From: Octopus vulgaris
Lineage: Eukaryota
Direction: 5' to 3'
Length of the DNA stretch: 64,000 bases
Assembly (NCBI GenBank): GCA_951406725.2
Contig: OX597832.1
Span: 10,540,001-10,604,000, forward strand
Positions 2,489-56,729 of the stretch are shown one piece after another. The position numbers and the translations under genes were made by a program. The notes under the pieces are model-generated. The model searched no databases. It was not told the DNA's origin and worked only from the letters and a program-made list of their open reading frames with translations. Position 1 is the stretch's first letter. Every line of letters begins with the position of its first letter.

Positions 2489-2554
<66 letters not shown>

Positions 2555-2571
2555 GTACATGCATATCTATA

Positions 2572-2640
<69 letters not shown>

Positions 2641-5114: not shown

Positions 5115-7465
5115 GTATTTAATGTCACCTTATTTTTCTGGTCCATATTCAAGCAACTGGAATCTCAGATTTCGTGCGAAATATTTCAGTGCATACTTAG
5201 ATACATGTATATGTGTGTGTTTCTGTGTGTGTATATGTTTAAGTGAATACAGATATTCTTTATTACTTACTTATACAAGCAAACGCAGAGGTATACCTGC
5301 ATTTACAAATACATATGGGGTTTGCGCATATCTGCTTGTGTGTGTGTGTGATAAGATGGTTACGCTACGACTCGAATACATTTAACCATATTGAGCCTCA
5401 ATCGCCTCAATCAACGACGGTATCAACAACAAAACACTAAAAACAAGCACATTTTTTTTTCAATATGTAAAGAAAAACATAGTTTTCTGGGGAGTTTTTT
5501 TCCTATTCTTTTCGTTGTATTTGCGATGTACAGAAAGAGTGAAAGTTTTATGACAACGTGAATACAGATAAGAGAATTGATCAATACAATACGTAGTGAA
5601 ATTGGAGTTTTATTCCCTGAGGAACAGACAGAAACTGAACACGATCTGGTGCTACAATTAACTTATATTGTAGTGTGTCAAAATTATATTTTTTTACGAT
5701 TCACCCCATAGGTATTTTTTTTCTAAAAACACTTCTCTTTTTTTCTAAATGAAGCAATGTATAAACTCCTAGGTTTTGTTAGAAATCTCATCTCTATTTC
5801 TTCCAGTATGCTTTGCAGAGGAAACTATATCCGGAGTTACTTATTATACATAGAGCAATATAATTCCTACCGCCTCGCAGCATTATCAACTCAAGTAAAC
5901 TTTTTTACACTGGTTATTTTTAAATAGATTGTCTCATTTTATAGTTGTCTCTAACTTAAGCACAAGGCCAGTAATGTTTAAGGGACGGAGTTCTTCTCTA
6001 ACGGACTCTAGCTGAACAGATGCACTATTGGATGGACTTGGATGGACTAATACACCGCACGAATTATCTATCAGTTTCGTTTCTTTTTTTCCTTCGGCAA
6101 TAACTATTCTATTTCCATGAAATATTGTAACTTTTCTGCAGTCATATCTATATTCAAGATGAGATGATTATTCTCACCTTTTATATTTTCTCTGTTTTTA
6201 ATATAAAGACAGTTACAAATTCCTTTCCTCGGGCGAGAGATATTACATTTGCATGAAACATTGTGTTTTGCCTACTGTCAAATGTATATGCTAGATGTAA
6301 TTACTATTTACTCCCTGAATTTGTGCTCACTTTCTTAGCATAAAGAGTCTTATAGATTTTACTTATCCAAAATTCTGAAACAACACATTAAAACAAAAAT
6401 CATGAATAATGATGAGCTGCTGCTTCGGTAAAAATTAATATGCAAATTTCGAGCTGTAGAACATATTTTATGCTGGAGAAAGATGTTAAGAGATATTGAT
6501 GGCAATATACGAAACAGAAATTGAAAGACAAGCGAGAAGAGTAAAGAAATCTATATATGAGATGAGAAAGGTGATGTAATATAAGTAGAAGGAAAGACAA
6601 GATGTGTTACTGGAGGAGGGCTATTTGAGAGCGGGGAGGAAATAAAAGAAAGGCCACTAGACCTTTAGAGAGCCATTATAGAAAGAGGGCAATAATAGCA
6701 AACTACATATAAACACACTCACGAATATATATATATATATATAACATCCCTTACACCATTCCTACAACTAAAAAATCTTTATTACTTCAAATCTTATAGC
6801 AGTTAGATACAGCCATAACCTGGTCAGTCATGGCAGAACTTCACAACCTCATATGTTCTTAAAATTTAAATCTACATCTTTATCTGTATATCTACCTTCT
6901 CTATAATGTTACTACTTGATTTGAAAGCTTTTGTAGGAATGGAAAACCTTTATATTTGGTTGATGAGCACTCAGTATCTTAAGTCTGCTGTAATACTTAC
7001 AACTTTTAATAAAATGATGTAGTGTGAAACAATTGTATCAAATTACCGGAGTCATTCTTGTTGCTTATTTTGATTTTATATATATATACATATATTTATA
7101 CTCACACACACAAACATATACTTACGTGTGTATGAGAAGTGGGATTTTTTCACATGGATTCTAGTATGTGTTACAAAATTATTGTTCTGATTTCAAATTC
7201 CATTACCTACAAATTTATTTATCATTATACTAGGATGTATAAAATAAAATAGCACTCCCGTGAACAAGATTGTTAGCTCTGGTTCCTTCTGGATTCACAT
7301 GCACCGGATCTCATTCAAGATCTCACTGTTCACTTCCACAGTATCTATGACGTTGAGGTGATATTGGGGAATGTGCTGCAAGATAAACCTTTTACTTATA
7401 ACAAAAACAATATTAAGCGAAACTGTGGGTTGTCAGACGCCAGTCATACATATATATATGTATAC

Positions 7466-7686
7466 ACGAGAGGCTGCTGAAAAGCTCCTAGTTTTGGGTA
7501 AGAGAGAATACTGGAGGATCAGTTTATTATGTTTTATTCAACACGTTCTCCTCTTAGAGTCATATACTTATTGCAGTGGACCATTAATTTCTTTCTAAGC
7601 TCTGTAAAGGAAATCGCAACATCGGTCCTTTAATCACGTCGTATGCGATAACCTTCAAGCTAGGAAATGTTCAGCACCATCCTCTT
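7466..7686. mobile_element. Tc1/mariner-type MITE relic
   Basis: Imperfect terminal inverted repeats acgagaggctgctgaaaagctcctag and ctaggaaatgttcagcaccatcctc in a TA-rich context. Confidence 0.5.
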
Positions 7687-9326
7687 CTGAGTATGTACAT
7701 ATACATATATATATATATATATATGTAATATTATATGTTATATAAACACAAAAACACACACACACTTACTGGAAGAACGTAGGCTCGATACATTAAAGTC
7801 TTTTTCACTTCCCTAGGGTTATACTAATACATCTGTTTGTTGTCTACAGCACCTGCCTTTGTCTTTCGTTATTTTTTTTTTGTAAATTCCTACTATATAT
7901 ATACATATATATGCAAATAAAATCCCATATATACGTGAATAAAGGCATGTATGCAGCTTTACCCTGGGATCCTTTTCTGCGCATATTGCAAGTCGATCAC
8001 AAAGTAAAGATTCACGACAAATTTTAACGATGCACAAACACTTTTGTACTGATTTCATGTACTTTGCCTGCAGGGGCGGAGATTTATCCAAATTTAAACA
8101 CACACACACACATACACGCACACACACACACACACACACATTGACACATAGCCAAAAATACGCAAATACAAGCGCACAGGGCAAGAAATTCAGATATCCA
8201 TAAAGTAAAGTAGCTTCTATCAACTGTAGTCTCGTGTTAACTCGAGTGCTGAAAGTCAGTATGTTTACCCTAAACAACTTTGCCATATCATCCCAAAAAA
8301 GCATCATGTTAATTTCCTAAAACCAATCACTTCCTTCTCCAGAGTCATATTCCTGTGCCACATACAAGGTTTGGTAGACTTTGACCAACGCGTAAATCGT
8401 TTGTTCTCAGTTATTTCTGTCTTGTTCACACTATAATCTATTTCATGCCATCAACCAAACTGATAGATGAATGGCTTCAGGGCAATCCTCACAAAACTCT
8501 AAACGAAGCTGCATCCACTCAACGAGTAAGATGCGCAGTCCATCATGTCATGACCTTTCTTATGTTTTTGCTCACTCGGCTGCATCAAACTCTTTCACCG
8601 CTCTCTTTGCATTTGTAATATAAGATAAAGATGACGAGTGTTAACTGAAGTAGAATAATACAAGACGGTGTGTTAATAAACAATGACAGCGATAGGTTTC
8701 TACTCGTGATGAAAATCATAAGGTCAGCTTCCTTACGTAGACTTAATCAATGATGATCAAACGCTCACCAACTCGACACATTCTTCAATCAGCAATACAA
8801 TAATGTACAATGTATCATTCAAGTTAATTAAAATTAAAACATTTTACGTGCGTTCTTCGAGAGTTCATTTGCTGCTTTTGATGTAATTGTTATACAATTT
8901 ATATACTCAAAACTAAACAAGAACATTATAAAAATGAGACAGCTTTGAAATTTAGTTTTACACGCTTAATACTTAGTCACACGTCAGCCGTAATGAAGCA
9001 GACATTTGATAAAGTAGATTGTAATCTGGACAAACAGCATTATTATTGATCGTAAGATATCTAGGAAAATAATGTTTTATCTGCCAAAAAGCCATCATTA
9101 ATTCAGTACGTGCAAATCTGGAAATATATCCTAAGATTAAATTTTCTTTGCTAGCAGAGTAAGTTGTAATAAGAGGGATATACTATTGAGAATATAAGTA
9201 ATTGGTTAATCTTCTGTCTGATATGTATAAGTCATGAAATATATGTATACATGGAGACGGAATAATTCAGAGATACAGCCGCACAGAGAGACGCATATGT
9301 ACATAGATATAAACATATCTGCATGA

Positions 9327-37880: not shown

Positions 37881-38134
37881 GAATCAATTGATAAAATGTT
37901 GCAAATAGAAAAACGTTAGTTTTCACCGAGAGTCTACTTATTTTAAACCCATTATACTGCAATGTAGCATTTGGTTAAAACATTTCCACAGCTAACAATA
38001 ATTATTGCTGTCGAGAAGGGCTTGTATGCATCAATTACGGACTGTACTACAATTATCAGTTTCTCAATTTAGAATATCCACAATGTGAAACTTCCAAAAT
38101 ACTTCACGCAGGTAATTAATTCTGTTATTGTTAA

Positions 38135-39340
38135 TTGTTGCGTTGTCTGAGTCTTGGTGTTGCTGCCACACGACTGTCTTGTTGACGTGTACCTTCTTGG
38201 GGGAAGGGAGTAGCACAGTGTCTTAAAAAGAATATGGAACATGAACGGTTGAGTTCGTCCAAGTATGAATTACTCCATGCAATTGTTGAGATGGACAAGG
38301 AGAAAGGAAAAATGAATTTTGCGGCGGTAGCCAAAAGCAACAAGAAAGTAAACATGCAAGAGCTGGACAACTACAAGAATATGCTTCGTAGGGAGGGTCA
38401 CGATGTAAAGGTGTCCTCTTCCCAAGAAGTATTAAACGAGGCCAAGAGTAGTATGATAACCAACAGAACATATTCTGTGAAGGCCCAGAGAATAGAACTA
38501 ATGCTGACGGAGCAAATTGAAAAGGCACTAAAACCTATCTGGTAGGAAATTTCCAACCTGGCTAGAGGGAGAAATTCGGAATGGTGGAAGGGCCACAGCC
38601 AGGCGACACGCGGTGACCTCCTTGAAAACGGATGAAGTAATTTTTCTACCCATATACCTTGGAAGGCATGCTTGCAGGGTGAGGGTATAAGATAAACTCC
38701 CGGAGATAAATATGCCCTTGCTGGTGACAGCCATATTGCTGGGCATGGAGTAGAATAAGATAACGGTTTTCGACGTCACTAGCACCGCTCACAAGAATTG
38801 GCAGGGTCAGACCCCTGAATATGGTGATTCAAGCAGCCCCAGAAGACTTCGAAGAGATGGTGGAAACCATTACGGTGGACGATATAACGCTCAGGGTTAA
38901 AGTGGAGGGCAAGACCCCTTGTTTTTACAAATGTGTACAAAAAGGGCAACATTAGGGTAGAATGCTCTCAACCACCCGTAAAGCCTCAACAAGCGCCAGT
39001 GTCCGTAAAGGAACCCGCACCTCCGCCAACGGCGAAGGTCAGCAAAAGTACAGAGGGCGTTGGAGGAATCTTAACCAAGGACAGATGAGAAATTATTGGA
39101 AGGAAGATCAGAAACAGGAGGATAAAGATAAAAACCCTGAACGAGCACCCCATCCCACACCCATGCAATTCCTACCCGAACCCACTTCGTGCCACCCTTC
39201 CCTTGCAGACACCAAACCTTGCCCTGCTTCCTCTGACATTAACAAACTGAACACAAGCACAGGAGCCCCAAGTTCACCAGCCCCCAACCAGTGTAGAGAA
39301 AACAAAGAGCATAGTCCTTTAAAATGCACACAATAGAAAA
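38135..39340 (+). pseudogene. ORF1/gag-like zinc-knuckle relic, copy 1
   Basis: RTYS..IEKAL..LARGR..LKTDEVIFLPIYLGRHACRVRV..PEINMPLLVTAILLG..WQG..VKVEGKTPCFYKCVQKG/IRVEC; homologous at protein level to copies 2 and 3; boundaries approximate, no TSD found. Confidence 0.75.
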
Positions 39341-39553
39341 TTGTTAAAAAAAGGGGAACAGTGGGACGGTTTCTGTTCTTGAAGTAACCTATATCTTTTC
39401 ATTACCTGCAGTCTTCTTAACTGTAATTTTGTACCAAACAAATGCTGATACAGTTTTTCCTTCACTAGTCACTAAATTCTCATTATCTCCTAATATACGT
39501 GCAATGGACCTATTACGCGAATGCATCTCGGTACATAATCCAGTAAAGATCTC

Positions 39554-39969
39554 TTTACTCTCCTTTCTCTTTTACTTGTTTCAGTCATTTGACTGCGGCC
39601 ATACTGGAGCACCACCTTTAATCGAGCAGCTCGACCCCGGGACTTATTCTTTTGTAAGCCCAGTACTTATTCTATCGGTCTCTTTTGCCGAACCGCTAAG
39701 TAACGGGGACAAAAACACACCAGCATCGATTGTCAAGCAATGCTAGGGGGACAAACACAGACTCACAAACACACATACGCATATATATATATACATACAT
39801 ATATACGACGGGCTTCTTTCAGTTTCCGTCTACCAAATCCACTCACAAGGCTTTGGTCGGCCCGAGGCTATAGTACAAGACACTTGTCCAAGGTACCACG
39901 CAGTGGGACTGAACTCGGAACCATGCGGTTGGTAAACAAGCTACTTACCACACAGCCACTCCTGCGCCT
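39554..39969 (-). mobile_element. SINE family A, full length
   Basis: Close reverse-complement match to 3255-3630. Confidence 0.9.
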
Positions 39970-40111
39970 AATCTGAGTACATTATCGCTATATATTCGCT
40001 TCCAGGTGTCAGTATGTTCTTTTAAATTATTGTCAATTATATATTTAATTTTGGTATGAGTAATACCCTTTCTCATGCTAGTTATTTAACTTTTTTGTTT
40101 TAACTGTTTTC

Positions 40112-40629
40112 CGGGAGATCCTTGAGAAACGCACCTCTCTAAGAAAATGAAATGCAATTAAAATTGTTAGGGTTAGGGTTTAGTTTTAGGGTTAGGGTAA
40201 ATTTTAGGGTTAGGTGGTGTGCACTCGCTTTCTCTTCACCAATTTTATGATCTGATATACGACAGAAATAATCATAAAACAATAGAGTAAATATGCTTAA
40301 GACGTATGCAAATTTTGTAATTGTTATTTTTGTTTTCAGTTTACAGAAAAAATAAATTATACAACAGTTGCTATTTGGCCCCTCGTATCATTAATAATAC
40401 CTGATTGGTAAAAGCAAATTACCGTCCCTTGTATTGTCCGACATGTTTGTTTATATTAGCGAGTGTCAGTTTTCCGTTTGTTTTATTTTTTAGCATAAAA
40501 TATTTAAAAATAGATGAATCTTTCTAACTTTTTGCATACATCATTTATTTGTATATATTTTCTATTTACATAACTTGTTTTAAATTGCGTTTCATTTTCT
40601 TGGACAGGTGCGTTTCTAAAGGAGCGCCG
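40112..40629. mobile_element. MITE with ~47-bp TIRs and internal TTAGGG-like repeats
   Basis: cgggagatccttgagaaacgcacctctctaagaaaatgaaatgcaatt versus aattgcgtttcattttcttggacaggtgcgtttctaaaggagcgccg; ttagggttaggg at 40167-40215. Confidence 0.75.
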
Positions 40630-41842
40630 TTATTCGAATTATACAAACACAGTATTGATACAGAATTACATTAAAAGATAAAGTCACACACATATATACA
40701 CATATGTGTGCTTCACATATGCACATTAATCTTTGGCAATATATTCCAAGTGAATGTTTTAAATATTACTGATGTGGAGGGAATACGGCAGTTCCCATTA
40801 CATTTTCTATACTTCTATATTAGAATGCTATGTTACTGAAGGAAGAATGCAAATTTTGTGTCTTCAGCTCCATCGATTTGCATACATGCATTTAGTTTCT
40901 TTCTGTAGTTTATAAATATTATTCGAGAATATCTTAGGGGGATGAGATTGTCCACTTCATTATTCATCGAGTTATCTTTAGTTGCATTCATTTTAATTTC
41001 AAAGTAAACCGTACAAAATAGCCTTATAATAATTATTTTATGTATGTACTGCGTGTGACAGAAATACAACATGTGTGTGCATGCGACAGGTTTTAGTTCA
41101 AAATGCCATCATTAATTCCTTAAAATATAAGTATGTTGAAAATGTATAGCATTGGTATTTAAGAAACGTTTATGTAACCTGTTTCTTGACATAAAACTAT
41201 CTAAATTTGTGGAATCGAAGTGAAATTTAAGAAAGATGAATATTCTAAAGGATTTCATGTTTGGTTTCGAAACCTTTGCTGGGATTCATTTCAAAAACCG
41301 ATCTAAGTTCATATTGAATACATATTTTAAAATATATATTTGCTTTATTTTGTTATATATACAATATTTATTTAAGAACATAGCTTTATAGAACATAATA
41401 ACTGATTTGGGGCTTAATATATAAATATTACCTATATAATTTCCGGCAATATTAATATTAGATGTGCAGGTAATTACTTTCGTTGATGGATATTTATAAT
41501 TATTGTTTATTTCTTAGATCTGTGTATGTGTTCGGGATTAGCGACTATAAAAGAGCGTAGGTGAGTGGGTATGCGTCGGTGAGAGAGAAACACACAAGGA
41601 CAGGCATTGATTTTAGTTACTATTTTCACCCTCCGCAAAAAATCCTAAATTTTATTTAATTTACTTTGCGGGAAGGAATGTTTTAACGAAGTCGCGTCTT
41701 GTTCTCATCTTCGAAACACGGATTAGATAAAACAGGGGACAACTGATGAAGGGAATGTTCTTTATGTTGCATGTCCTGTTTTTTTTCTGTTTGTTTGATT
41801 TTTTCGTTGTTCGAAAAAATTTCGTTTTCTGTGTTTTTTTTT

Positions 41843-41993
41843 ACGACGGGCTTCTTTCAGTTTCCGTCTACCAAATCCACTCCCAAGGCTTTGGTCAGGC
41901 CGAGGCTATAGTAGAAGACACTTGCCCAAGGTGCCGCGCAGTGGGACTGATAAGTGGTTGATAAGCACGTTACTTACCACACAGCCACTCCTG
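41843..41993 (-). mobile_element. SINE family A, 5' part
   Basis: acgacgggcttctttcagtttccgtctaccaaatccac...cttaccacacagccactcctg. Confidence 0.85.
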
Positions 41994-42091
41994 TGAATTC
42001 ACATATGCATGTGTGTATAAATGCGTACATTTACATATTCGTGTACACATATGCATGCACATACAGGAGTGTGTATGTATATATGTGTGTG

Positions 42092-42159
<68 letters not shown>

Positions 42160-42567
42160 GCGTGGGCGTGTTGTCTTATATGTGCGTGTGTGCGTATAAA
42201 ATTATTATAAGGATGTATGTACATATATATGCATGTATACAGTGTACGTGAATACCTTTGTTACACTCAGACTCGTTAATTTTCATGTATGTTTCTCTTT
42301 TGAAAATCTAGAAATGCTTTTTTCTTTTTGTGTAGGATGTTTTGTAATAATGTGTGCCCAACATTAATTCACACCTTTTCATTCTACTGTCATAAGTATT
42401 TTATAAAAACGCGAAACGTTGAACTCATATGCTAAACTTTAACAATTCCTGTCACGACATGAATCCATGTTTAAAATAGGTGCAATTTCCAGTGCATTCA
42501 CTGATAATTAGTAATAAACCTAGCATACCTTTCTTATTGCATGTGGAGAAAGTTTTTTTTTTTACAT

Positions 42568-43020
42568 GGGAGTTGTTGTGTGGTAAGAGATTTCTTCCAA
42601 GCCGAATAGTTCTTGGTTCAGTCCCACTGCATGGCACTTGGTCGAGTATTTTTTACTCTAGCCTCTAGTCGATCAGGGCTATGTGAATGTATTTCATAGA
42701 CGAGACTGAAAAAATCTCGTTGTGTGTGTGTGTGTGTATGCGTGTTTGTATGTGTGTATGCGTGTTTGTATGTGTGTGTGTGTGTGTCTATGCGTGTTTG
42801 TATGTGTGTCTGTTTGTTGTCCACCGCAGCTTGACAACCGGTGCTGGCGTGTTTACTTCCCTGTAGCTTACCAGTTCCGGAAAAAGCCGACAGAATAAGT
42901 ACCAGGCTTTAAAAAATAAGTAGTGGAGCCTTCTCTGTCTATCATTAGACTAAAAATTCTCCAAGAGGCTGCCCCAGCATGGCCACAGTTTAATAATTAA
43001 AACAAGTATAATATAAAGAT
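42568..43020 (+). mobile_element. SINE family A, older copy
   Basis: gtgtggtaagag...ggttcagtcccactgc...gcttgacaaccggtgctgg...ccagcatggccacagt. Confidence 0.8.
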
Positions 43021-43404
43021 AATACACCTATACACACACACACACACACACACTTATATAGGGAGAATATACAGATAGATCTAAATATCTTTTGGGTTTT
43101 ATGATTTCTACCGTGGTTGCGTGAGTGCAACTATTTAGGTTACTGAGAAATAGAGTCTGCTGCTATATTGCCTTCTCTCTTATTAATTCCTAATATTAAT
43201 GAGAAGTTTGTTTTCCATCATTCTCGCTCTTTCATACATAAATACGTGTGTGCTTTGTGAAGATGACAATTGCACATACTCAAACACACGAACACATATA
43301 GAAATATATAGATCAATACACAGAAGAGTATTTATACATAAATACATATTCACTTCTGATGCATACGTAGATGAACAAAAACAGAAGTAGGTACACACAC
43401 ACAC

Positions 43405-44146
43405 ATATCTGTCAATCTGTATCTATCTTTCTCTCTACATCTCTAGCTATTTATCTATCTCTTTATCTCTCTATCTCTCTATCTTTCTATATCTATGTAT
43501 CTACCTCCATCTATCTATGTATATCTCTATATCTATATCAATATCGATATCTCTCTATCTATATCTTCATCTATACCGATATGTCTCTATCTATATCCAT
43601 ATATCTATCTACATAAATTGTCTACACTCACACACAGAAAAATATATCCTGTTGCGCATTTGTTTATATTTGAGATTGAGCATGAAAGTTCAATTGCTGC
43701 GTAAAAATATTGTATGACACTTCTCTCAATATGTATACACACGCATGCACACACACACATAGACACAGAGTATTTGTGCATCAGTATAAATACACACACA
43801 CGTGCGCATGTATGTCTGTATTATGTGAATATATATGCTTGTCTGTATATGAATATGTATATGTGCATGTATGACTGCATGTGTATATGCATGCATGTGA
43901 GTAAGTGTATATATGTGTATTGATATACATGAATATATGTGTATGAACATACGTAAATGTGCATACATATACGAGTGTATATGTGTATATATGCGTATGC
44001 ACTTGTGTATATGTGTATACATAGGTATGCATATACGTGTGTGTGTATGCTTGTACGTGTGTGTATACGTATGCATATACCTGTGTATATATATATATAC
44101 ATGTTTATATATACGTGTGTACTTGTGTTTATGTATCCATGTATCT

Positions 44147-44210
<64 letters not shown>
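43405..44210. repeat. Degenerate (TCTA)n and (TA/TG)n microsatellite field
   Basis: Read directly; source of many spurious ORFs. Confidence 0.9.
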
Positions 44211-44214
<4 letters not shown>

Positions 44215-44564
44215 CCCCTTGCAATCAAGGAAGTCTTTGTAGCGTGCGCCGTTATGCACCTACTGTTTTCAGGCGACTTATATAGGTAGTGGCTGTGGTG
44301 ATGCTCATAGACGTTTAAAACTAGTCAGATAGGAACATCTTCGAATGCGGCAGGTAGGTGGGAGTGTTCTACGGGTAACTACAGAGACACATATTTCTAC
44401 TGAGAAAAGAGGGCTATCTTGAATCTTAGAGCATTATTCAAGGACACAGAGATTTACAATGTCAAGGAATTAATCATGAAGACAGTTTGTTAAATATTAC
44501 GCAAAGCACATCTCCACAGATCTTTCTACGCCTTTCATCTTCTATGTTTATTTTTTAGCTTAGC

Positions 44565-44780
44565 AGCCGTGATGTGGTATAATCGTTAGAAAGCCGGTTG
44601 AAAATCTTTAGCGGCATTTCGTCTTTCATTACGTTCTGAGTTCAAATTCCGCCGAGGTCGACTTTGCCTTTCTTTAGTTCGGGGTCTACAAAATAGTTAT
44701 CAGTTGAGAACTGGCGTCGATGTAATCGACTTTCCTACTTCCAGAAATTGCTGGTCTTGTGACGAAATGTGAAACTAATA
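44565..44780 (+). mobile_element. Old family-B-related SINE
   Basis: acgttctgagttcaaattccgccgaggtcgactttgccttt. Confidence 0.75.
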
Positions 44781-47700
44781 TTACTTCCAAAATCTTTTTA
44801 ATACTTCTCCATTCGCCTGGGAGACCTCCTTTTAACTGAGTAACTATAGTTACTCATATCATATCATTCATACGTCCTTTTTTAATTGTCTTAAGATCAG
44901 TCTTCAGTTATTTTTGTGTTTTGGTGGGTGGGGTATCAAATGTTTAGTTTCTTATAAAATTTTAATTTGTCACTGTTCAATTTAAGGTTGTACTATAGCC
45001 TAGCTTTTACCTTCTCAATTATTTCTAAAAGGTATTTCTTCCCTTTTCTATCAAAAACTTTATTTACTTATTTCTTCCCAAAAATAGCCATAAATTAAAA
45101 ATTCCATAATTAAGATAAATAAAAATAATGGACACTGATTTTAGTTCTGAGTAAATATTTTAATTTCAAAAACTATAGCTTAAATTATGAAATAAAATTA
45201 TTCATGAGTTCATAATTCGGATAAAGATAAAAATGTGTTGTTTAAGATAATATTTTGTTGAGAAAAATGCAAGATTAAACGAAGCCCATTTGTATTTTCC
45301 AAAGCTGTTTCTAACTCACGACGCAATTCTGAAAGCAAGACAGGAAGTTATAATAGTGCTTTTTTTGTTTTTGTTTGTTTTTTTAATATGCACAAGGAAA
45401 TACCCCTGGTTGTCGGTGATACTTATTTGAAAAACAAATACAAACATAATTGACAATGAAGACTAACTTTACTTCTGAAAAGCGTGCGACAGAATCTCAA
45501 CGTGGACGGATTCTCCAAAGTTGATAGTATAATTCAAAATTAGAAACTGCATGCCCAAGAAATAAAATTTTTGTTTTAGTGACGTAATGCAGATAAAACA
45601 TCATAATTTCACATTGCTAATCCATATATAAAATATATATAATACCATTACCTACAGATTCCATCTTTCAAATTTCTCGTACTCCTGTCAGTCTCAGGAG
45701 TATATTTTAAGAATATTTCTTTTGTTTCTTGTTTTCTTCGAGTTTCAACTATTTGTGTTCATTTTGTTAATCATTTTCTTTCTAACGTTATAATCTTTAT
45801 TGTACAACACGTAGTCTAAATTTTATAGTGTAGTACATCTCGCTATTCCCTTTCTTCTGTTCATATCCCGACTTTTCTTTTATCGTTGTTTTCTTTTTTC
45901 TTTAACTGTTTTGCTTAAGTTGCCTTCCTTCGTTCACGCACATTCTCATAATTTCATAATGTGTTCCTTTCATTTATTCTCTTTCAGGTTCTTTACTTGC
46001 GATTTCTCTTTTTCTGCCTATACTTTGTATTTTTTCTCCATTTTCATATTCATCTATTTCTTGTCAACAATTTCCCTCATTCATTCTTACCGTATTACTT
46101 ACTGATTCAAACCTTTGTAACATACATTGATCCTGTTTATATTTACAGGTTTCATCTGAATACATTATCCTTTTTCGTTCACACAGCTAACATTCACCAC
46201 CTTTCTTTTAATATCAAATTCAATATTTCTTAGCTTTATCATTTCCTGCTTCTACCTTTCTCATTGCAGCAATACAATGAACGCCTTCTTTATTCTCTAT
46301 ATTTTAAAGGATTTACGACTTCATGGCCTTCTTTGCCATTGTCTATGCATCTCAGGTTCTACATGTCGCTATACCCATGTTCGTATACAACCGTGTAAAT
46401 GTATCTGTTTATATATATGTTTGTCTCTGTATTTGTGCGTCCCTACTCGAACACGCGCACATAAATGTACATTAACGTGAATTAACCTGTTGATAGGAAT
46501 TTCCTTCCATTCACCGCTCACTGGATTCTGTGCTAGCTGCAATTAATTTATATTCTATATTTTTCCACAAAAGGCCGAAATTAGACAAAAAGAAATTCTT
46601 CTCTCATCACTGTTGATGTATATCCAATTAAAGCGCCATCCTCTCACTGCATCAGTCGTATAAGCATATCCTTATTTATCCTAGTTTGTGCACACTGAAA
46701 CTCGAAAATATTTCCTCAGACATCTTGTATGTCTTGCAATTGGCCTGTTTCAGACTTTGTTTTAACCTATTTTCTCAATTTCTCATGTCCACTGAATTAT
46801 ACTGCACATGAATACACGGACACACACACGGACATGAATACACGGACACACAGAGACACACTCACACAAAACATATTACATTTATTTCTCTCAACCTAAA
46901 TTATATATTGGTGTATTTTTACATGTATATATTACCTTCAGTTATTCAATGCTGGTCTTTGTTTTGTTTTTTCCTCCTTTTTCTAATTATCATGGGAATC
47001 GTTTGGTCGTGGGAAAATTTAATTTGCAGAATATGCCTCAGGTATTTTCCGAGTTCAACTTCTGCTTTCACCAGTCCAGGGCTAATAAATGAGTACCGTT
47101 AAATTTGAGGCGTCAACAATATTGACACCCTCATCTGACGCTGTACGTAAATAAATATGATGGTCTAGGACGTAAATCAAAAATAATCGATCTTATTATC
47201 GGACAAAAGTTTGCCGTATTTATTTCATTTTCTTAACGTTTACATTTCAAATCGTGACGATATCAACTTTGCCTTCCATCACTCCAGAATAAATAAAATA
47301 AAATAGCAGGCAACTACTGGGTCGAGGTAACAGATGAAATTATCTCCCTTCAATATTGCTGCCCTTGTACCAGGTTACTACTTCAAAACTCAGTACACTC
47401 TTTGAACGCAGGTGGTCATATCGAAATTTTCCTACATTCATTAGATTTAACCACCGCAAAAGCACGTGGCACTTCCCGTTCCCGTTTTCAATATTATTTA
47501 TTGCTTAACTATTTTATTCGTATGTGATATCTGCCTTCATTTTTCTCCAAGCTTCCACAGTGGTTCTGAAACATCTACCTCACTTTCGATAATTTGTTTT
47601 GTCATATATTTTTCTTTCATTCGTTTAAGTTTTGGAGTACAGGAAGATAATGGCATATTTTAACTTTAGAACGGTAGGTTAAATGAGAAGTGTGACAAAC

Positions 47701-48293
47701 TCACTATTTGCTCAGAGAAAAATACACTTTTGACACCACTTTAAAATGCATAATAAATTACATAAGATCTTGCGTCCCTTTACATATGAGCTTGGAGCGA
47801 TGACAATTTCTTTATCTTCGACGGCACTTGAATGTAAACATCTTTCAGTCAGTAATATGAGAAATAGTTCTGTGTTGCGAAATAATGCAGTTTTATAGTG
47901 CGAAAAAAAAAATTACATATCAATCTTTCAGAAAAAATCTGATGAGCAGATATAGGCTGGTAAAAAACGAAATGTTTCGCGCATGTACATATTGTTGAAG
48001 GACCGATAATATATTGTTTTGCTTTTAATAGGCAAATTTTGCCTGTATCCATTTTGGTTGAAGATCAGGTATATTTTCAAACATAATTGATTAAATATTC
48101 GGTACTTTTGAGTAACACAATGGGAAATTAAAGAACCGTATTTTTCCCCTGCCCCCAAATTTTCTTTACTCGGATATCAGGTAGGTAGTTTTCATTTACT
48201 TGTAGGAAGTCATTTGACTTGTAGTAAGATGAGAACCTATAGTGACAAAACGTATTAAAAAAATAAATAAATGAGTGATACTTAGTGTGAAAG

Positions 48294-48545
48294 TGGAGGC
48301 GCGTGGGTTAGTGGTTAGGGTGTCAGCATCATGATCGTAAGATTGTGGTTTCGATTCCTGGATCGGGCGACGCGTTGTGTTCTTGAGCAAAACACTTCAT
48401 TTCACGTTGATCCAGTCCACTGACCTGGCAAAAATGAGTAACGCAGCGATGAACTGGCGTCCCATCCAGCTGGGGAACACCTACGCCATAGAAACCGGGA
48501 AACCGGGCCCATGAGCCTGGCTAAGCTTTAAAAGGGCGCATTATT
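48294..48545 (+). mobile_element. SINE family D with TSD
   Basis: tRNA head tagtggttaggg..ggtttcgattcc; body ttgtgttcttgagcaaaacactt..gaactggcgtcccatccag; TSD ttagtgtgaa on both sides. Confidence 0.85.
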
Positions 48546-49093
48546 TTAGTGTGAAGCTAATCGCCGAGTCAACTCAACTGGTGTAGATAAATGAAGTGTC
48601 AGCAATAGGCCATTGATAGATTATCAAGCAACTGAAGATTTCCAGAAATATCGGATTTCAAGATATTCATAGAATTCCGTTAAATATACATACAATTGCT
48701 AATAAATCTACAAAGCGTCACTTAAAAAGCCTCCACACAGCCTTTCAATATGCCAGAAATACCAGCCAATATTAGTAACATGACACGTACCTTCCTAAAG
48801 TAGAAGGGCTCATTGGGCTCTATAGTTTTAGATACACCTTTTTTTCAAATAACAAATTGATCACTGGTTTTCGGCCAATTTTAAGCTGATCTTGATAAAA
48901 TTACAAATATTATGAGTTGCTAGTCATTTAACTTGTATGATAAGTGGTTGTTTTGTTTTGTCGGTAAAATTCGAAAGATTTTTTCAAATTGTTTCTATAC
49001 AACAACAATCATTTGTTTTCAGTATGACCATAATAAATACGCTTTGTCATTTTTGGAATGGGAAATATTCTTGTTATTTGCTGCTCTGTCTGT

Positions 49094-49139
<46 letters not shown>

Positions 49140-49639
49140 GTGTACATTTAAACACAAAGAGAAATAACCTATAACAGGCAATTTCTACACGCTAGGAGAC
49201 AGCCAAGTTATAGGTAATTTCTATTTGTCTTTAAATGAATACTATTTCATATTGAATAATATGTCGTCTATTGACTGTTTATGCATGCTAGGCCACTGGT
49301 AGTGAAATTTGCAAAAAAAATACTACCTTATATATATATATATATACACCCTCATCATTGAAATTCTTTCTTTTAGACAGATAGAGATATATATGAGTAG
49401 CACATGATATTGTTCTGATGCTTTTAAAACTGAATGTCTCAGTTTACCGTTCAGATTACCCAAACTATAGTTTGTACAAGTATTGTTGAATTTAGGGTGT
49501 AAAACTGATGATTCTATGAAGAGCATTGTTTAAAAAGCGAAACCTACAGCTAGCATTGTTTTTTGTTGCTTGTTTTTTTTTTGTTTTTTTTTTGTGGAGC
49601 AATGTTTGGTGTATATTCTTCACAATGTATCCAGTTGAA

Positions 49640-49852
49640 AAGGCGGTGATCTAACTGAAGCGTTATCCCGCCGGACAAAATGGTTAGCGGAATTTCGTGA
49701 CTTTTACGTTTTGAGTACAAATTCCGCCGACATCGACTTTGCCATTCATCATTTCAGGGCCGATACAATAAGCATCATTATAGAAGTGGGATCGATGCAA
49801 TCAACTTAATCTCTCTCCCTAAACTACTGGCCTTGAGCAGAATTTTGAAACC
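49640..49852 (+). mobile_element. Old family-B-related SINE
   Basis: aggcggtgatct..aaattccgccgacatcgactttgcc. Confidence 0.7.
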
Positions 49853-50254
49853 AATACATATATCTAGTGGTGGAAACTTTTCCCCATTCACAATGGGTAA
49901 TTGTATTCAGCAAAGACATATACTAACATTAACTAGAATCAATTAAACTTCAGATTCTACCGAGATCAACATTGCTTATTATTCATCTATGTTGGTTAAA
50001 ATAAAGTAGCCGTCTAGTACTGAAGTCAGAAAACCGAATGCAATTATTCTCAAAATTGGAGAGTTTATGTTAAGTCAGAATAATATCGGTATTTGTGCAG
50101 CGTGTGGACTGAAAATGTCTTTCGTAGAATTGAGAGTAAAGCCTATCTGCGTCATGTTGATGAAATACGAATCGATTTCAAACCCTTAATTTGTTTATTG
50201 TTACGTTCTTTGCCGTGCATAGTGCATCAATTGTTATCTTAGGTTTCATTTTTT

Positions 50255-50607
50255 TTTTACTTGTCATTTGACTGCAGCAATGCTTGATCACCGCCTAGAA
50301 GGGAATTTTAGTCGAGCAAATTGACACCAGAACCTTTTAAAGCCTAGTATAAATGCTGTTGATGTCATGTGCCCAGTCTCTAAATTATGTAAACGTAAAT
50401 GTAAATACACCATCACCGGTTGTCAAGCGGTAGTGGGGAGGGGAAAACACCCGCATCCACACCCACACAGATGTGTGTGTCTGTGCGTGTGTACGACGGG
50501 CTTCTTTCAGTTTCCATTTACTAAATCCACATACAAGGCTATAGTCGGCTCGAATGTGCCACGCAGTGAGACTGAAGCCGGAAACGTGGTTGGGAAGCAA
50601 GTTTCTT
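50255..50607 (-). mobile_element. SINE family A split by the ORF1-only element; its head continues at 52411-52446
   Basis: ...ggttgggaagcaagtttctt | insert | ggaagcaagtttcttgccacagagctacgactgcgc. Confidence 0.75.
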
Positions 50608-52410
50608 TATTTCTTTTAAAATGCCGTAAAGACATTACAAAAAGGGGGACACTACAACGTATGTGGCGACATGAAACAAAAATATGAAAATCAAATATGA
50701 TATAATGAATGACACAAGAACATGAAAAACAAATTTAATATAACATGAATGATATCTGAAAATGGATACTATGAAGCGTGTGCTACTCACCCCACACTGA
50801 GTAACATCGCTCGCCGCCTCTGGGTCGTAAGCTCTTTTTCTCCTTAAGTTCAATCATTTTTCCCCTTTCTCCAGCATTTAGTGACATCATTCCCTCCGCC
50901 ATGCATTTGTAACCTTCCTCACTGGTGGCGGGGGTCTTCTAAATTTTGTGGTGTCTGTTCATTCTTTTTCTATTTTTTCTTGTGGGCAAATGGTGTAGGT
51001 GGGTTTGGTGTCTGTATGGGGAGGGTGGGTCTGAGTGGTCATGGGTGGGATGGAGTTGGACCGAGGTACCACATCATACTCATTATTTTTTCTTCTTTTT
51101 CTCTTTCTCCTGCTCTCTTTAACTTTCCATTCTTCCCCATTCTTCCTCCTTTCCCCCGTCTGTCATTTCTTCCTCTCTTTTCTCTTCCGTCTCCACAACT
51201 GTTTCCTCAGCCATGGGCAGTATGCTCTAATGTAGCCCTTTAGGCCACATTTAAAACAACGTGGTACTCTGTCCTCTTCCCACACCCTCTACACGATTGC
51301 CCTCAACGTCACCATATCTGCCAACTTCTCCAGTTGACCCTCCTGTCTGAATAAGGAGTTCAAGAGTCCTTCGTTTCCAACCTCCTACTTCCGTTTCTCT
51401 GCCTTGGAGGACAGCCACCTTCACCTCGCTTCCAACAAGAACAGCTGCCGCCAACCAAGCCACATCTGTATCCGGTGGAATTGCTTCTACCCTCACCTTG
51501 GAAGTCTTTCTTCCAAGGTATGTGAGCAGAAGCACTACTTCCTCTGTTTTTTATCCAAGGGCTGGCTCACAAATTTGCGAGCCACCTCAGGGGCGTCATA
51601 TAAAAGCCATACCGTTGCATACTTGACACCCCTAGAAATAAACTTTATAGTTGGCAGATGCTCTGCCAACTCTTTCTCTATTTCAATTTTAGGAAAGACT
51701 GTGATGGTTTCGAGTGACTTTGAATATGTCCTCCACACCACCGGCCTTTCCTCTAAGTCTTCTAACCACTGATCGGGTGGGACAAACTCCCACTCCAACA
51801 CAGAGTTCGTTTTCTCTGACATGTTTTGGAAAAAGAAAAGTTCACACAAAAACAGCGAAAGATTAAAACACAAAAAAGGAAAGAAGGAAGAAGGAAAGAA
51901 AAACAGTCCAAAACACGGCGACTTCAATCTTCCGGCCAATTGATATGGCAACAGGAGCACAACAACCGGAACAAAGCTTCGCAAATTTCAACAATAAATT
52001 GATACAAAAATTGGTAAAATATTTCACAATATTTGGAGGTGGAATACGCCTCCAAAATATTCCACACAATCTTCCGTCCACTATTACTCCAGCCCGACCA
52101 AATAGTAGAAGGGACACGGCCACAGGAACACAAAAACAACGTTCACAATTTTTGGAGGCGAGATATGCCCCCAAAACAAGTTACTTCTCACCGCTAAGTG
52201 AGATACTTATGCCAAACTGCAGGCAGACAAATGTCCGGAATCCAGTGACTAGATTGGAAAGAAAAATTAAACACCAAACAACAAACCCCTAGTGAACTCC
52301 AAAAAACAAAAGTCTTGCAGCTGATCTTCACTAGTTCAATAATTCACGAAGCTAGTGTCCAGCGTCGTGACTCCTCTCAGTGTAAAGAAAACACTGACAC
52401 ACGCATGCGC
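50608..52410 (-). mobile_element. ORF1-only zinc-knuckle retroposon, copy 2 (1803 bp) with 15-bp TSD
   Basis: TSD ggaagcaagtttctt at 50593-50607 and 52411-52425; ORF from ATG 51822: WRTYS..IEKEL..FISRGVKYATV..TYLGRKTSKVRVEAIPPDTDVAWLAAAVLVG..RCFKCGLKGYIRAYCP; no RT. Confidence 0.85.
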
Positions 52411-52479
52411 GGAAGCAAGTTTCTTGCCACAGAGCTACGACTGCGCTTATTATTGGTAGTGATTGTTTTTCTTTTTTCA

Positions 52480-53270
52480 TAAACGTATTTCTATTTCAGT
52501 CTCATTGTATTCTAATGGTGTCTTGATATTTTTCTAGGTGACAATTTGATCTGAATGGAATAAGATATCTGTCAAATTACAGCGATAGTTGTCAAGTTAT
52601 TAAAAATTATATCTGAGCTGTTAGCCCTAATCTGGTTATCAGTCTAGTTTTGTTGACTATATTTTTTCCGATTATAATAGATTTTTCTATTTTGTAATTA
52701 TACCAGTTATTATATGAATACAAGCCGAGCAAAGTGTCAGCATTGGACCCAGTCTGCATAGCTGCCAACTGAATCGTGGTTGCATATATATTTTGACTGT
52801 TCAAGAAAGCTAGAAATAATTTGGTCAATTGTTTTGTACTATTAATTTCATAATTTACACTTGACGTTCGTCTCTTATTTCTCTGTATTGTTTATCCAGA
52901 TATTTTTTTTTCTATTTGTAGTAAGACATTGATCATGTGCTGCTATCATCCCATCATCCGTTTCTGCTTTTAGTCCATAGCATCTCAGTGTAAGTTAGAT
53001 TTCATGCTGACTTATTTCCTCTATTTTGAGTCTTACAGGATATTGGCCATGGAGTTGTTTAGTCTCCAGAGTTTCTTTAGTATATTTTGGAATTCCATTT
53101 TGATTTTGTCTCCTGCGTTTTTTAAACTCATTCTTTTGTCTTTTTGTTATTATCTAAGAATTCGTTCAGTGAATATCTTGTTTCTTTGTTCATAGAGAAA
53201 TGCTTTTATTTTGTTCATTGTTCAAAATACGCTAATTAGTATCAATTAGCTTGTTACTAATTATTTTACG
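52480..53270 (-). pseudogene. Older R4/Dong-type LINE C-terminal fragment
   Basis: Minus-strand translation GLKAETDDGMIAAHDQCL..VKCKL..KTIDQIISS..YICNHDSVGSYADW..IRANSSDII matches the LKAETEG..AAQDQ / CCHC / ANRPDI consensus. Confidence 0.65.
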
Positions 53271-53761
53271 AGAAAAAATATTCTTCCATTTAATTGTCTT
53301 TTAATTGCATCGACTCCCCCTCTTTATATTACGACTATCTTCTTGATATTCCTTCTCTTTAAAAAAATGAACTGTTAATGCAGTACTACATATAAAAGTG
53401 TTGTAGATGGAATACTTAAGATCATAGGGTTTATTTGTTTGGGGTGACACAGAACTATAGAACACCATACGCAAATACAGACGCACGTAGATTTTAATAA
53501 GAGAAGCAGAAGGGTATTGCACTTACGATTGCGAGATTCGTGGTTTCCATTTCCAGACTAGCTGTGCATTTTGTTCTTGAGCAAATCTTTTATTTCACGT
53601 TTCTGTAGTTATCTCTTTAAATGGGTAACCTTGAGACGGATTGGTATACAAGACCAAGACGTTGAATCACGTAAATCACCCGAACGGAGGTTTCACGGGC
53701 AACATTTTGGATTCACTGATCGAAACAATGAATACTACAACCAAATGGTTGGTGGGTGGTA

Positions 53762-54254
53762 AAAGGCGGCGAGTTGGCAGAAACGGTAGTGCGCCGGGCG
53801 AAATGCTTAGCGGTATTTCGTCTGCCGTTACGTTCTGAGTTCAAATTCCGCCGAGGTCGACTTTGCCTTTCATCCTTTCGGGGTCGATAAATTAGGTACC
53901 AGTTTCGCATTGGGGTCGATGTAATCGACTTAATCCGTTTGTCTGTCCTTGTTTGTCCCCTCTGTGTTTAGCCCCTTGTGGGTAGTAAAGAAACAAGTAT
54001 TTCGTCTGTCTTCACGTTCTGAAAGGCGGCGAGCTGGCAGAAACATAGCACGCCGGACGAAATGCTTAGCGGTATTTCGTCTGCCGTTACGTTCTGAGTT
54101 GAAGTTCCGCCGAGGTCGACTTTGCCTTTCATCCTTTCGGGGTCGACAAATTAAGTACCAGTTACGCACTGGGGTCGATGTAATCAACTTGATTCGTTTG
54201 TCTGTCCTTGTTTGTCCCCTCTGTGTTTAGCCCCTTGTGAGTAGTAAATAAATA
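53762..54254 (+). mobile_element. Head-to-tail dimer of family B SINEs inside an older tRNA-headed SINE
   Basis: Two near-identical copies (53762-53996 and 54022-54254) joined by gtatttcgtctgtcttcacgttctga. Confidence 0.9.
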
Positions 54255-54984
54255 GGTTGGAGATGGTTGCACAACCACGTAGATGTACAAAAATGAATGA
54301 AATTGTATCTTTTGAAATGCTCTCAGAAGCTATCTAATTTTCTTACCTGTATTTTACCATTCTCTTCATTTGCAATTCAATATGTTGAAGCTGCATGTTA
54401 TTACCAATGCGACATGAATTTATAACCATTGTCCTTTTGCTAGTACAGATTTTTATTTTTTTAAATTACTGTGATATTCCTGTCGTAGTCATTTCTAATG
54501 TCATTTATTTTTGTACTGTATCTCATAACATTTTAATTTTTTGTGAGTGGATAAAATGTAATGTTCGCACTTTTAAATATTAAGTATCTTCCTCAAGCAG
54601 CTTCGCTCCATTTGTGCAGACCTCTACCGAATTTTATATCCTAGTTCAATTCATGAACAATGTTCAGTGATTTCTCCAATTGACTATTATCACTGGTAAG
54701 TGAAGAGACGTGCTGTGCTTACTTCAATATTTGAAATCGGACAGATTCTGCAACAAGGCTCCAAAAACCAGAAGGTAGAAATGAAACAGGAAGACTGAGT
54801 GAGTCCACTAACCAAGTATTCCATGGTAGGAATTGAACTACCAGTCGCAATCCGACGATTGGTGGGTATTGCAGTGTTTTTTTTTCTTTTCGCGTGATCA
54901 GAGCTACGTAGAAAAGAATAACATAAGTCGAGTTCATGCAAGATTTATTTACCTATGAATACTTGTCTGATTTTTATCATCTAC

Positions 54985-56433
54985 GTGAGTTGGTTGAGCT
55001 TTGGTTTCGCTCCCAGGTGAGTTGTTGTTTTTATTGTTCTGAAATACGGAATTGTTGAATTACTGAATTGTTGGATATTGTGTTTGATATTCTGTTTCTG
55101 AATTTGCTGAAAATTTTATTTGGTTTCCCCATTTATGGGTGAAGCGGGTAATAACGCAATTATGCCGGTTCAAACAGGCAGTTATGCGGCAGTGACGGGC
55201 AAAAGCCTGACAGCTGAGCTACTGAATATACAAGAACTTGAAGTAAAGGATATAGATTATAAGATACAGAACGTTAAATATAGCTACAAGGAAAGTGGAA
55301 TTCGCAACCATCGAAGCGATAGAATGCCTAAAAGACGTAAAAGACAATTACATTCTACAACAGAGCACGGAAGTTTGGCACGGTGGAGGTTCGCTTCGTT
55401 AATGAAAACGAATAAAAAAAGTACTCCACCGTATCGTTGAAGACAGTACTGTGGGCACTCTTACCTACTTATTGTGGCAGACATTCGGCCAGAGTGAGAA
55501 TAGGGAGAGTGCCACCAGAAATAGACGAGGATTGGTTGGTGGCAGCCATCCTCTGTAGAGGAAAAGGTCGAGATTTTGATAGCATCCAAAACAGCGGAGG
55601 TCAACTGGTGGGGGTTTGGCCTCGAAGTGATGGTACTCATAATCCTACCAGACCTCCACAAGATGACGGAGGAGATAATATTGCTCGACGAGACTAGACT
55701 GAGAGTCATGGTAGAGGGGTGATCACCAATATGCTTCCAATGTGGAGTAAGGGGGCATGTAAAGGCAAGGTGTCCCCAGAAACATGAACAACTGGTGGTG
55801 GAGGAAGAGAGTTCGGAAAATGTAAATGAAATAGCGGAGAAGGAAGTAGAGTTGTCCGAGGAAGACAAGAGAGGAAATAGTGAGTCCCCACCAAAAAAGA
55901 AATGGAAAGCAGAAAAAAAGGGAAAAGAACAGCTGAAGCAACGATAGAACAAATACCAGGGCCGGAGCCGTCAACAAGTAAGGAGGAGGAAGGACGGGAA
56001 GAACTGTTAGATCTGCTAGAAACAACAGCAAAAATGACAGAGAATGTTGAAAGAAGGCCGAAGCCGTCAACAAGTAAGGTTGACGAAGAACGGAAGTCAT
56101 TGGAAGAACCGATAACAAGTAAAGGCCACGTAAAGGAAAATACAACAGAAGATATGTGAGATACGAGAAAAGTGTAGAAATTGAAAAACGGATAGCAAGA
56201 AGGAAGGGAGTTATCAGTGAAACTTGCAGATAAGGAGGTGAATCGAAACAAGAAAGCAGTATTATTAGATGAGGAAAAAGCAGCCAGACTGAGAAAGACA
56301 TTCGGAAGTAGGATAGAGAATACAGCATTATGGGTTCGATTCGACGAAGTACCACCTGTGATAACTTTTGAGGAAATGGTAAGTCTTATGATATAGAATA
56401 AAAATAAAGGAAAAAAGATATCAAACAGAACGG

Positions 56434-56488
<55 letters not shown>

Positions 56489-56697
56489 GAACAGTAATAA
56501 AGATACAAACTGAACAGTAAAATGCAACTTTCTACTTTTGTGGGGGTGGGGTAGAAAGTCATTTTCGTCATCATTATAATTTTATTTTTACATCTTATAA
56601 ATCATTCGCTAATATTTTATTTGTACCCCACGTTTGTGTTATCTGTCTCCGTAGTGTCCCCTCTATATTTAAGGATTTATGCCTAATAAAGAAAAGA
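54985..56697 (+). mobile_element. ORF1-only zinc-knuckle retroposon, copy 3 (1713 bp) with 16-bp TSD
   Basis: TSD gatttttatcatctac at 54969-54984 and 56698-56713; ORF relic SYAAVTG..RKFGTVEVRF..LKTVLWALLPTYCGRHSARVRIGRVPPEIDEDWLVAAIL..VMVEG*SPICFQCGVRGHVKARCP plus E/K-rich tail; aataaa near the 3' end; no RT. Confidence 0.88.
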
Positions 56698-56729
56698 GAT
56701 TTTTATCATCTACTTTGAGTTATGATGCA

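Follow-up and report, generated by a model that had tools for sequence, protein, structure and literature searches.

ORF1-only retroposons in the Octopus vulgaris genome probably borrow the reverse transcriptase of L1/Tx1-group LINEs

A 64,000-nucleotide stretch of the Octopus vulgaris genome (assembly GCA_951406725.2, contig OX597832.1, positions 10,540,001 to 10,604,000; hereafter the window) contains three decayed relics, copies 1 to 3, that encode a protein with a CCHC knuckle but no endonuclease or reverse transcriptase (EN/RT). Are they pieces of broken long interspersed nuclear elements (LINEs), or members of mobile families that carry only the first open reading frame (ORF1)? An earlier note on this DNA chose the second reading, and our results supported it. 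We consider it very probable that the relics are ORF1-only retroposons (half-LINEs), kin of octopus LINEs of the L1/Tx1 group with an APE-type endonuclease and a reverse transcriptase (APE-RT), and that they are likely moved by a borrowed ORF2 protein (ORF2p) through a common 3' hairpin. Target-site specificity, tandem trains, young intact copies and the chimeric structure of copy 2 go beyond the earlier account.

The three relics were compared as translations. Copy 1 matched copy 3 at E 6e-11 and copy 2 at E 3e-10, although in DNA the relics resembled one another over no more than 67 bp (78%) and 27 bp (89%), and the motifs quoted by the earlier note were recognisable in the translations. A translated search found no match to ORF2 anywhere in the 64-kb window. 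The relics do not form one family as had been supposed, since they fall into several clades: copy 1 into C1 and copy 3 into C3 of the tree described below, and copy 2 is a chimera of clades B and A.

The earlier note itself had named an outcome that would speak against it, namely that most genomic homologues continue into an EN/RT-bearing ORF2. The octopus's own genome (2.8 Gb, 227 contigs) was examined by three DNA and two protein searches, in which scoring was confined to the 40 or 150 best candidates. Thirty loci per search were fetched with 1.5-kb flanks, and 16 extra clade-B matches with longer flanks brought clade B to 46 of 150. Over all 240 loci, those fetched via ORF2 included, a frameshift-tolerant alignment gave 257 ORF1 matches. 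Of these, 207 spanned 130 codons or more, and 188 copies were left after 19 duplicates had been removed. The elements were multi-copy, and the set was larger than the earlier note had seen, in a sample that is query-driven. A recognised tail without ORF2 followed ORF1 in 122 copies, and 32 had no ORF2 in at least 1150 nt and no recognised tail. The others lay too near the locus end (16), kept the ORF2 end only (3) or ran into an endonuclease (15), and all 15 of the last kind came from loci fetched via ORF2. Among the 155 ORF1-driven copies, none continued into the endonuclease. Downstream ORF2 was lacking in 137 of them: 107 ended in a recognised tail, and in 30 a stretch of at least 1150 nt contained no ORF2. 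Of the others, 2 kept only the ORF2 end, and 16 were too short to call. The named refutation failed because of this result (0/155).

These elements have the anatomy of complete mobile units, with a leader, ORF1, a short 3' untranslated region (UTR) and target-site duplications (TSDs) but no ORF2. Common ends, TSDs and 5'-truncated copies, which are hallmarks of retrotransposition, were observed, and 13 ORF1-only subfamilies had at least three copies. For clade A, 16 of the 20 units measured fell at 1.43-1.47 kb, and for clade B 32 of 35 at 1.96-2.27 kb; those C1 and C3 copies with a clear TSD were about 1.5-1.7 kb long. The TSD-bounded unit and the 5' leader of the earlier description were retained, but its length of about 1.7-1.8 kb became about 1.45-2.25 kb depending on the clade, and the supposed A-rich end turned out to be a small hairpin followed by AATAAA(GAA), with no poly(A) tail. 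At the same time, intact clade-B frames of 414-415 aa were found, 99.4-99.9% identical among four copies at different places and 97-100% identical among five others on different chromosomes.

In the ORF1 tree, the ORF1-only copies grouped into clades A (support 100/95), B (100/100), C1 (100/96) and C3 (98/97). None of the sampled LINEs fell within these clades; C3 also contained one deletion copy. The dN/dS comparison between ORF1-only subfamily consensuses, a check that the earlier note had proposed, gave 0.07-0.28 for 25 pairs, and the bootstrap upper limits were at most 0.42 in 9/9 pairs bootstrapped, DNA-similarity-selected pairs included. The ratio w was 0.18 for shared changes versus 0.53 for private ones (Fisher p 5e-23), and stop codons were mostly private (34, against 4 shared). 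These substitution patterns indicate purifying selection on ORF1 between ORF1-only subfamilies. In the alignment, clade-B subfamilies at dS ~1.5 had one ORF2-less 3' UTR in common, which makes it likely that the constraint on ORF1 postdates the loss of ORF2.

Could each subfamily instead be a recent and separate offshoot of an autonomous LINE of its own that has since been lost or lies outside the sample, with a constraint that predates the loss and an ORF1 protein (ORF1p) that is dispensable? One-off internal deletions do occur (L089, L202, L240), the deep nodes of the tree were without resolution, and full sampling covered only four LINE families. Constraining all ORF1-only rows together cost 3.9 log units (p-AU 0.11, 18 rows), so that a single origin is neither supported nor rejected. 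We nevertheless regard separate recent origins as unlikely. The common ORF2-less 3' UTR at dS ~1.5 speaks against them, and so do the w of 0.18 for shared changes inside subfamilies, the full 414-aa frame of young B copies and the abundance of one B-type 3' UTR motif, which has 165 exact copies genome-wide (142 for that of the LINE). Even less credible, and largely refuted, is the explanation by dead-on-arrival LINE products (internal deletion or premature polyadenylation) that never formed mobile families. Three one-off deletions were met among the 188 copies, but dozens of copies on many chromosomes have the same ends and length, the clades that contain their ORF1 include no sampled LINE, and a true LINE-type 3' tail is present.

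The encoded protein was modelled from 48 unaltered sequences (mean pLDDT 84.8). Residues 49-136 of the model matched RNA-recognition motifs (RRMs; Z 9.6, rmsd 2.8, 80 aligned), as the earlier note had expected for the region before the knuckle, and the best Foldseek matches were tandem-RRM proteins. The second domain appears to be RRM-like; residues 135-218 alone, a segment cut from the whole model, matched other alpha/beta folds (Z 7.7-7.8). A single CCHC knuckle follows, and Pfam recognised zf-CCHC in 31 of the 48 aligned ORF1 cores. Transposase_22, the type II ORF1p family, whose members combine a coiled coil, an RRM and a CTD, was present in 0/48 cores among the Pfam families listed (25/26), and human L1 ORF1p was absent among the fold matches listed. 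As modelled, the protein fits type I ORF1p as outlined in the available text of PMC5203782. An ORF1 profile found 533 proteins at E <1e-10 among 50%-identity representatives, many of them via the knuckle or as fragments; named homologues came from Octopus sinensis, O. vulgaris, O. bimaculoides and Argonauta hians. An origin from a long terminal repeat or retroviral gag was considered and rejected: it is the knuckle alone that matches nucleocapsid proteins, no terminal repeat exists beyond the TSD, and the partner ORF2 is of the APE-RT type. We give hardly any credence to a domesticated host gene (ZCCHC3- or L1TD1-like) as the source of processed pseudogenes, or to spread mostly by DNA-level tandem duplication. 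A ZCCHC3 RBD1-RBD2-CCHC cluster in the ESM Atlas (at 0.89, a lead only) and a seven-copy B train at 2.0-kb spacing, extendable by unequal exchange, can be cited in favour. Against this stand the missing poly(A), the presence of this ORF1 as the opening frame of intact LINEs, site-specific insertion with individual TSDs at dispersed loci, and the mixing of subfamilies in most trains.

Autonomous relatives with a homologous ORF1 are present in the genome, as the earlier note had supposed. An ORF2 fragment adjoining one copy pointed to intact LINEs with frames of 1130-1150 codons, whose first ORF aligned with the half-LINE ORF1; four families were sampled. Identity between half-LINE cores and the ORF1s of the sampled LINEs was about 21-44%, and for clade B it was about 21-25% with every one of them. 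ORF2 of these LINEs contains Exo_endo_phos, RVT_1 and zf-RVT domains. Its closest solved protein is human L1 ORF2p (E 1e-66; R2 E 1e-19), and since this is the nearest solved reverse transcriptase, sequence comparison places the enzyme in the L1/Tx1 group and no more narrowly. The two-ORF layout agrees with that of such LINEs, with a type I ORF1 (RRM and CCHC) and an ORF2 of APE, RT and zinc-binding parts. The text available from PMC5203782 regards a type I ORF1 in non-mammalian animals as compatible with Tx1. The ORF1 type, the L1-group RT and the target preference together suggest that the partner LINE may belong to the Tx1 clade; named Tx1 reference elements were absent among the homologues returned for it. 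Many intact two-ORF LINEs of the L1/Tx1 group were seen besides (L141, L142, L143, L144, L146-L150, L154-L156), several with identical scores, and they include arrays of 5.27-kb period on C22, C27 and C30. A related clade is present in assembly records P0090, P0136, P0150 and P0173-P0260; its ORF1 branch is supported at 100/100, and its ORF2 shows about 50% identity across the RT.

What do half-LINEs and LINEs have in common at the 3' end? All clades and the LINEs terminate in a 4-bp hairpin with a 5-nt loop, followed by AATAAA. Across 37 tails (of 43 extracted), 76% of cells were paired versus 53% after shuffling, and covariation was 0.66 versus 0.19 in shuffled tails and at most 0.15 in slid controls, figures that are inflated because the sequences are related and the helix was chosen by the analyst. 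The three central pairs showed 13-17 two-sided (compensatory) changes. The hairpin is likely a recognition signal for the partner RT. A further hairpin with a TGGGG loop was found in 15/18 A, 7/24 C3, 3/9 C1 and 3/40 B copies and in 3/5 LINE tails examined. Tail identity to the LINE with the 1140-aa ORF2 was highest for A and B (0.61-0.74); the tail consensuses of two C3 subfamilies did not align and were left aside. A second abundant short interspersed nuclear element (SINE) ends in a tail of the LINE type (TGTCTGTCCTTG..GTCCCCTCT..hairpin..AATAAAGAAA). Its tails start in the window at 11505, 20792, 53938 and 54197 on the forward strand and at 34800 and 61344 on the reverse strand, and a SINE core lay upstream of 39/40 such tails in the fetched loci; judged by its tail, this SINE likely relies as a client on the RT lineage of these LINEs.

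The target site further linked clades A and B to one LINE family. The same base of a SINE head directly followed the tail in 24/26 A copies (copy 2 included) and 46/52 B copies, 70/78 together, and in 6/6 LINEs of the 1140-aa-ORF2 family. The motif was seen after none of 17 C1 and 27 C3 tails. Insertions at this site carried 15-bp duplications. The genome contains 37,722 exact empty target sites and 482 exact tail-SINE junctions, the first 30 of which comprised 17 B tails, 1 A tail, 9 LINE tails and 3 that were too short. Six empty sites lie in the window (3270, 5100, 19257, 32418, 39953 and 41982). From its A- and B-box-like motifs only, the SINE head may be read as tRNA-like; ARAGORN found no tRNA in the window. 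Within the short flanks, another member came next on the same strand in 9/26 A, 7/52 B, 8/27 C3 and 3/17 C1 copies. One train contained seven B motifs at 2.0-kb spacing beside a LINE, and most trains combined different subfamilies. Flanks of C1 and C3 formed small clusters, one of them common to C1, C3 and another LINE type. Besides the SINE site, a second common target repeat (GTTCCACAGTTC..TGTTGATAGTTC) served C1, C3 and LINEs of a decayed type (L010, L072, L073, L152, L153, L240), and L062/L064/L077 and L016/L018/L022 form further small target clusters. The partner LINEs prefer repeats as targets, namely the SINE site for the 1140 family and (TC)n for the 1138 family. In the latter, the 3' flank was a (TC)n microsatellite in 2/2 cases shown, with L141, L142 and L239 as examples of such flanks, which is Kibi-like.

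Several observations have to be set against the reading as ORF1-only families moved by these LINEs. The sampling followed the queries, each search scored no more than its 40 or 150 best candidates, and rare LINEs with an A-, B-, C1- or C3-type ORF1 may have escaped. At L202, a C3-type ORF1 is followed by ORF2 residues 735-1135, and L089, at the base of C1, carries an ORF2 end. A clear TSD (score at least 12) was found in 28/77 tested copies versus 6/76 control positions. The neutral control of the selection analysis is imperfect because private changes give w of 0.53, not 1; loci fetched with protein queries are skewed to low dN. The definition of the hairpin came from the same sequences that were used to test it. 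Clade A tails score 0.65-0.73 with other LINE tails as well, so the tail alone does not identify the partner. Lastly, 34/53 C1, C3 and LINE flanks share no target.

How might such elements move? From the common target base and tail we infer mobilisation in trans by the ORF2p of a partner LINE. The half-LINE would make its own RNA-binding ORF1p, which would coat its own RNA, mainly in cis, and ORF1 would be retained for this reason. The ORF2p of a full-length LINE would recognise the common 3' hairpin, nick its preferred site and copy the half-LINE RNA. Clades A and B would inherit the site specificity because the partner endonuclease chooses the site; in Tx1-clade LINEs, the endonuclease is given as the main determinant of target choice in the available part of PMC4494074. 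The 15-bp duplication would restore the site, and later insertions of different families could stack there as head-to-tail trains. C1 and C3 may use other partners with other or looser targets. A wider picture is tentative, and we rate it as somewhat below an even chance: a long-lived guild of ORF1-only retroposons, independent of their parents, that switch helpers via the 3' tail. Here clade B would still be active, outnumber its helper at the site within the commonest SINE and pair its own ORF1p with a foreign ORF2p, and the same RT lineage would drive the second SINE, giving four tiers (LINE, half-LINE, client SINE and target SINE).

ORF1-present non-autonomous LINEs are known as a kind, and HeT-A (Jockey), HAL1 (L1) and Ag-Sponge (CR1) are listed in the accessible text of PMC5786205; TRE5-A.2 makes a fourth. 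The octopus elements encode ORF1p without EN/RT, combine a LINE-homologous ORF1 with a LINE-type 3' end and form amplified families, which are the features of that kind. HAL1 of mammals, as presented in parts of PMC5753468 and PMC5786205, is likewise a non-autonomous L1-group derivative with ORF1p only, and it has several origins. The octopus elements differ from HAL1 in their type I ORF1p (RRM and CCHC), mammalian L1 having the type II Transposase_22 protein (PMC5203782, in the text available), and strict membership in HAL1 fails on this ORF1 type. In further contrast to HAL1, their end is a hairpin shared with the partner plus AATAAA, not poly(A), and two of the clades are site-specific. The best experimental parallel is TRE5-A of Dictyostelium. 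Its derivative TRE5-A.2 has lost ORF2 and kept ORF1, is site-specific and is moved in trans by the ORF2p of TRE5-A.1; when ORF1 is missing, the mobility of TRE5-A drops to 0.5%, the structured 3' UTR is essential, and ORF1p acts mainly in cis (PMC3159450, available portion). According to the same portion, TRE5-A.2 derives from its partner directly by deletion and inserts at a position upstream of tRNA genes via TFIIIB, whereas the octopus half-LINEs form several diverged clades with the low ORF1 identity to LINEs given above and have their target inside a SINE head. HeT-A and Ag-Sponge resemble them as bipartite non-autonomous LINEs in which ORF1 is present (PMC5786205, same text), but belong to other clades, and the octopus elements are dispersed and SINE-targeted. 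By the part of PMC4494074 at hand, Tx1L, Keno, Kibi, Koshi and Tx1-Mar with the client SINEU show a similar APE-encoded repeat preference, clients with the partner's target and tandem insertions; the octopus clients differ in encoding ORF1p, and a tRNA-like SINE head is not among the targets listed there. HeT-A resembles the octopus elements in forming tandem arrays with its partners and differs from them in being telomeric.

In the sections available, the full-length LINEs of the published octopus work are RTE and Dong. Papers on octopus and mollusc repeats name L1-Tx1 as a class only (PMC8967140 and PMC10294476, available text), and the active octopus LINE reported is an RTE (PMC9115989, available text). 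In the literature compared, which also included parts of PMC4758252 and PMC5753468, we found no ORF1-only element of Tx1-like type or from a cephalopod; Repbase, Dfam or supplementary repeat libraries may already contain consensuses. What is new here is an L1/Tx1-group case of ORF1-only elements with at least four diverged lineages. The system is genuine and in part still young; a candidate helper can be identified for it, and its landing site lies in a SINE. Selection on ORF1 is measurable without ORF2, and near-identical intact copies exist beside an intact candidate helper, which makes two questions testable: why ORF1p is kept, and whether ORF1p and ORF2p must match. If true, a LINE endonuclease aimed at one SINE base with more than 37,000 exact empty sites would be a new safe-haven strategy, and such an endonuclease could be a site-specific insertion tool. 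Annotation based on the RT would miss ORF1-only elements or mislabel them as genes. ORF1 pieces were annotated as, or fused into, gene models in P0003, P0004, P0039 and P0050 (for example 'EPM2A-interacting 1-like', an LDL-repeat protein, a C2H2 protein and a WD40 protein), which are probably annotation artefacts.

The window relics can be placed in this frame. Copy 1 is a decayed ORF1-only element of clade C1 on the forward strand, placed by its alignment to L062/L064 and by the tree. Its extent of 38135-39340 in the earlier note was revised to about 38113..39368, with the 5' end kept. The copy is 3'-truncated, short of about 350 nt relative to L062, and the TSD search found no duplication at its ends. 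Its ORF1 core (38318..38949, forward; tblastn and translation) has frameshifts and stops and ends with the CCHC knuckle. The extents of copies 2 and 3 and their exact TSDs were reproduced.

Copy 3 (54985..56697, forward strand), decayed but full-length, is an ORF1-only member of clade C3 whose 3' UTR contains a (TA)n run. Its exact 16-bp TSD occupies 54969-54984 and 56698-56713. The ORF1 core (55195..55776) is frameshifted and carries the CCHC knuckle at its end. The computed fold places the upstream 3' UTR hairpin with the TGGGG loop at 56519..56566, and the terminal hairpin, in which one pair is broken, lies with AATAAA at 56672..56690, as recognised from the sequence and the family covariation.

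Copy 2 (50608..52410, reverse strand) is an ORF1-only chimera within a SINE. Its clade-B part (51554..52410) contains the 5' leader and the first part of ORF1, with the start at about 51822, and is 81-82% identical in DNA to L048/L050. Its clade-A part (50608..51550) contains the remainder of ORF1, the knuckle, the low-complexity tail and the 3' UTR, and is 77-84% identical in DNA to clade-A copies. In protein, identity was 62-68% to clade-B consensuses before about 51552 and 77-81% to clade-A consensuses after it. The junction at 51550-51554 is in register, just upstream of the LP.Y motif, and joins B and A frames that are only about 25% identical. Template switching or a deletion inside a B-A tandem may have produced it. 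Among the best 40 scored matches, the window copy alone fully spans the junction (one other match reaches 48 nt beyond it). A recombinant subfamily was therefore dropped as an explanation, and copy 2 is likely a one-off chimera. The exact 15-bp TSD lies at 50593-50607 on the 3' side, where it belongs to the SINE head, and at 52411-52425 on the 5' side. The 5' stub of the split SINE is at 52426..52447, a flank also found in 42/55 A and B copies measured, and its 3' remainder is at 50491..50592, with the same flank in relatives. On the same strand, the terminal 4-bp hairpin before AATAAA (sequence and family covariation) is at 50622..50634, and the upstream 3' UTR hairpin with the TGGGG loop, which also occurs in three LINE families, was computed at 50773..50816. 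Rfam over window positions 37000-57500 gave microsatellite noise only, with no ribozyme or tRNA model.

Other observations concern exchange and origin of the elements. In clade B, L190, L227, L167 and L164 have B16-type ORF1 heads with B7- or A-type tails or C-termini, which suggests that tail exchange between families at the common site is frequent. One-off internal deletions of LINEs at L089, L202, L240 and L136 kept ORF1 and the ORF2 end (or part of ORF2), and they are possible raw material for new half-LINEs. Intact, lower-scoring C3-like ORFs were also noticed, several at 1.7-1.9 kb spacing, some of which may be LINEs. The 5' leaders of two B families contain splice-donor- and acceptor-like signals (L165:1065-1150 and about 3060-3140). 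No match to a spliced joint was found in four contig sets guessed to be from RNA; contigs from these runs cover a young B element, which is not evidence of transcription. Neighbouring elements unrelated to half-LINEs lie at L145 (reverse strand, 1704-4993), L150 (reverse strand, 6438-8000), L058 and L160. By motif, we take them to be another APE-RT LINE with a CCCH-like ORF1, a Penelope-like GIY-YIG ORF and RT/transposase fragments.

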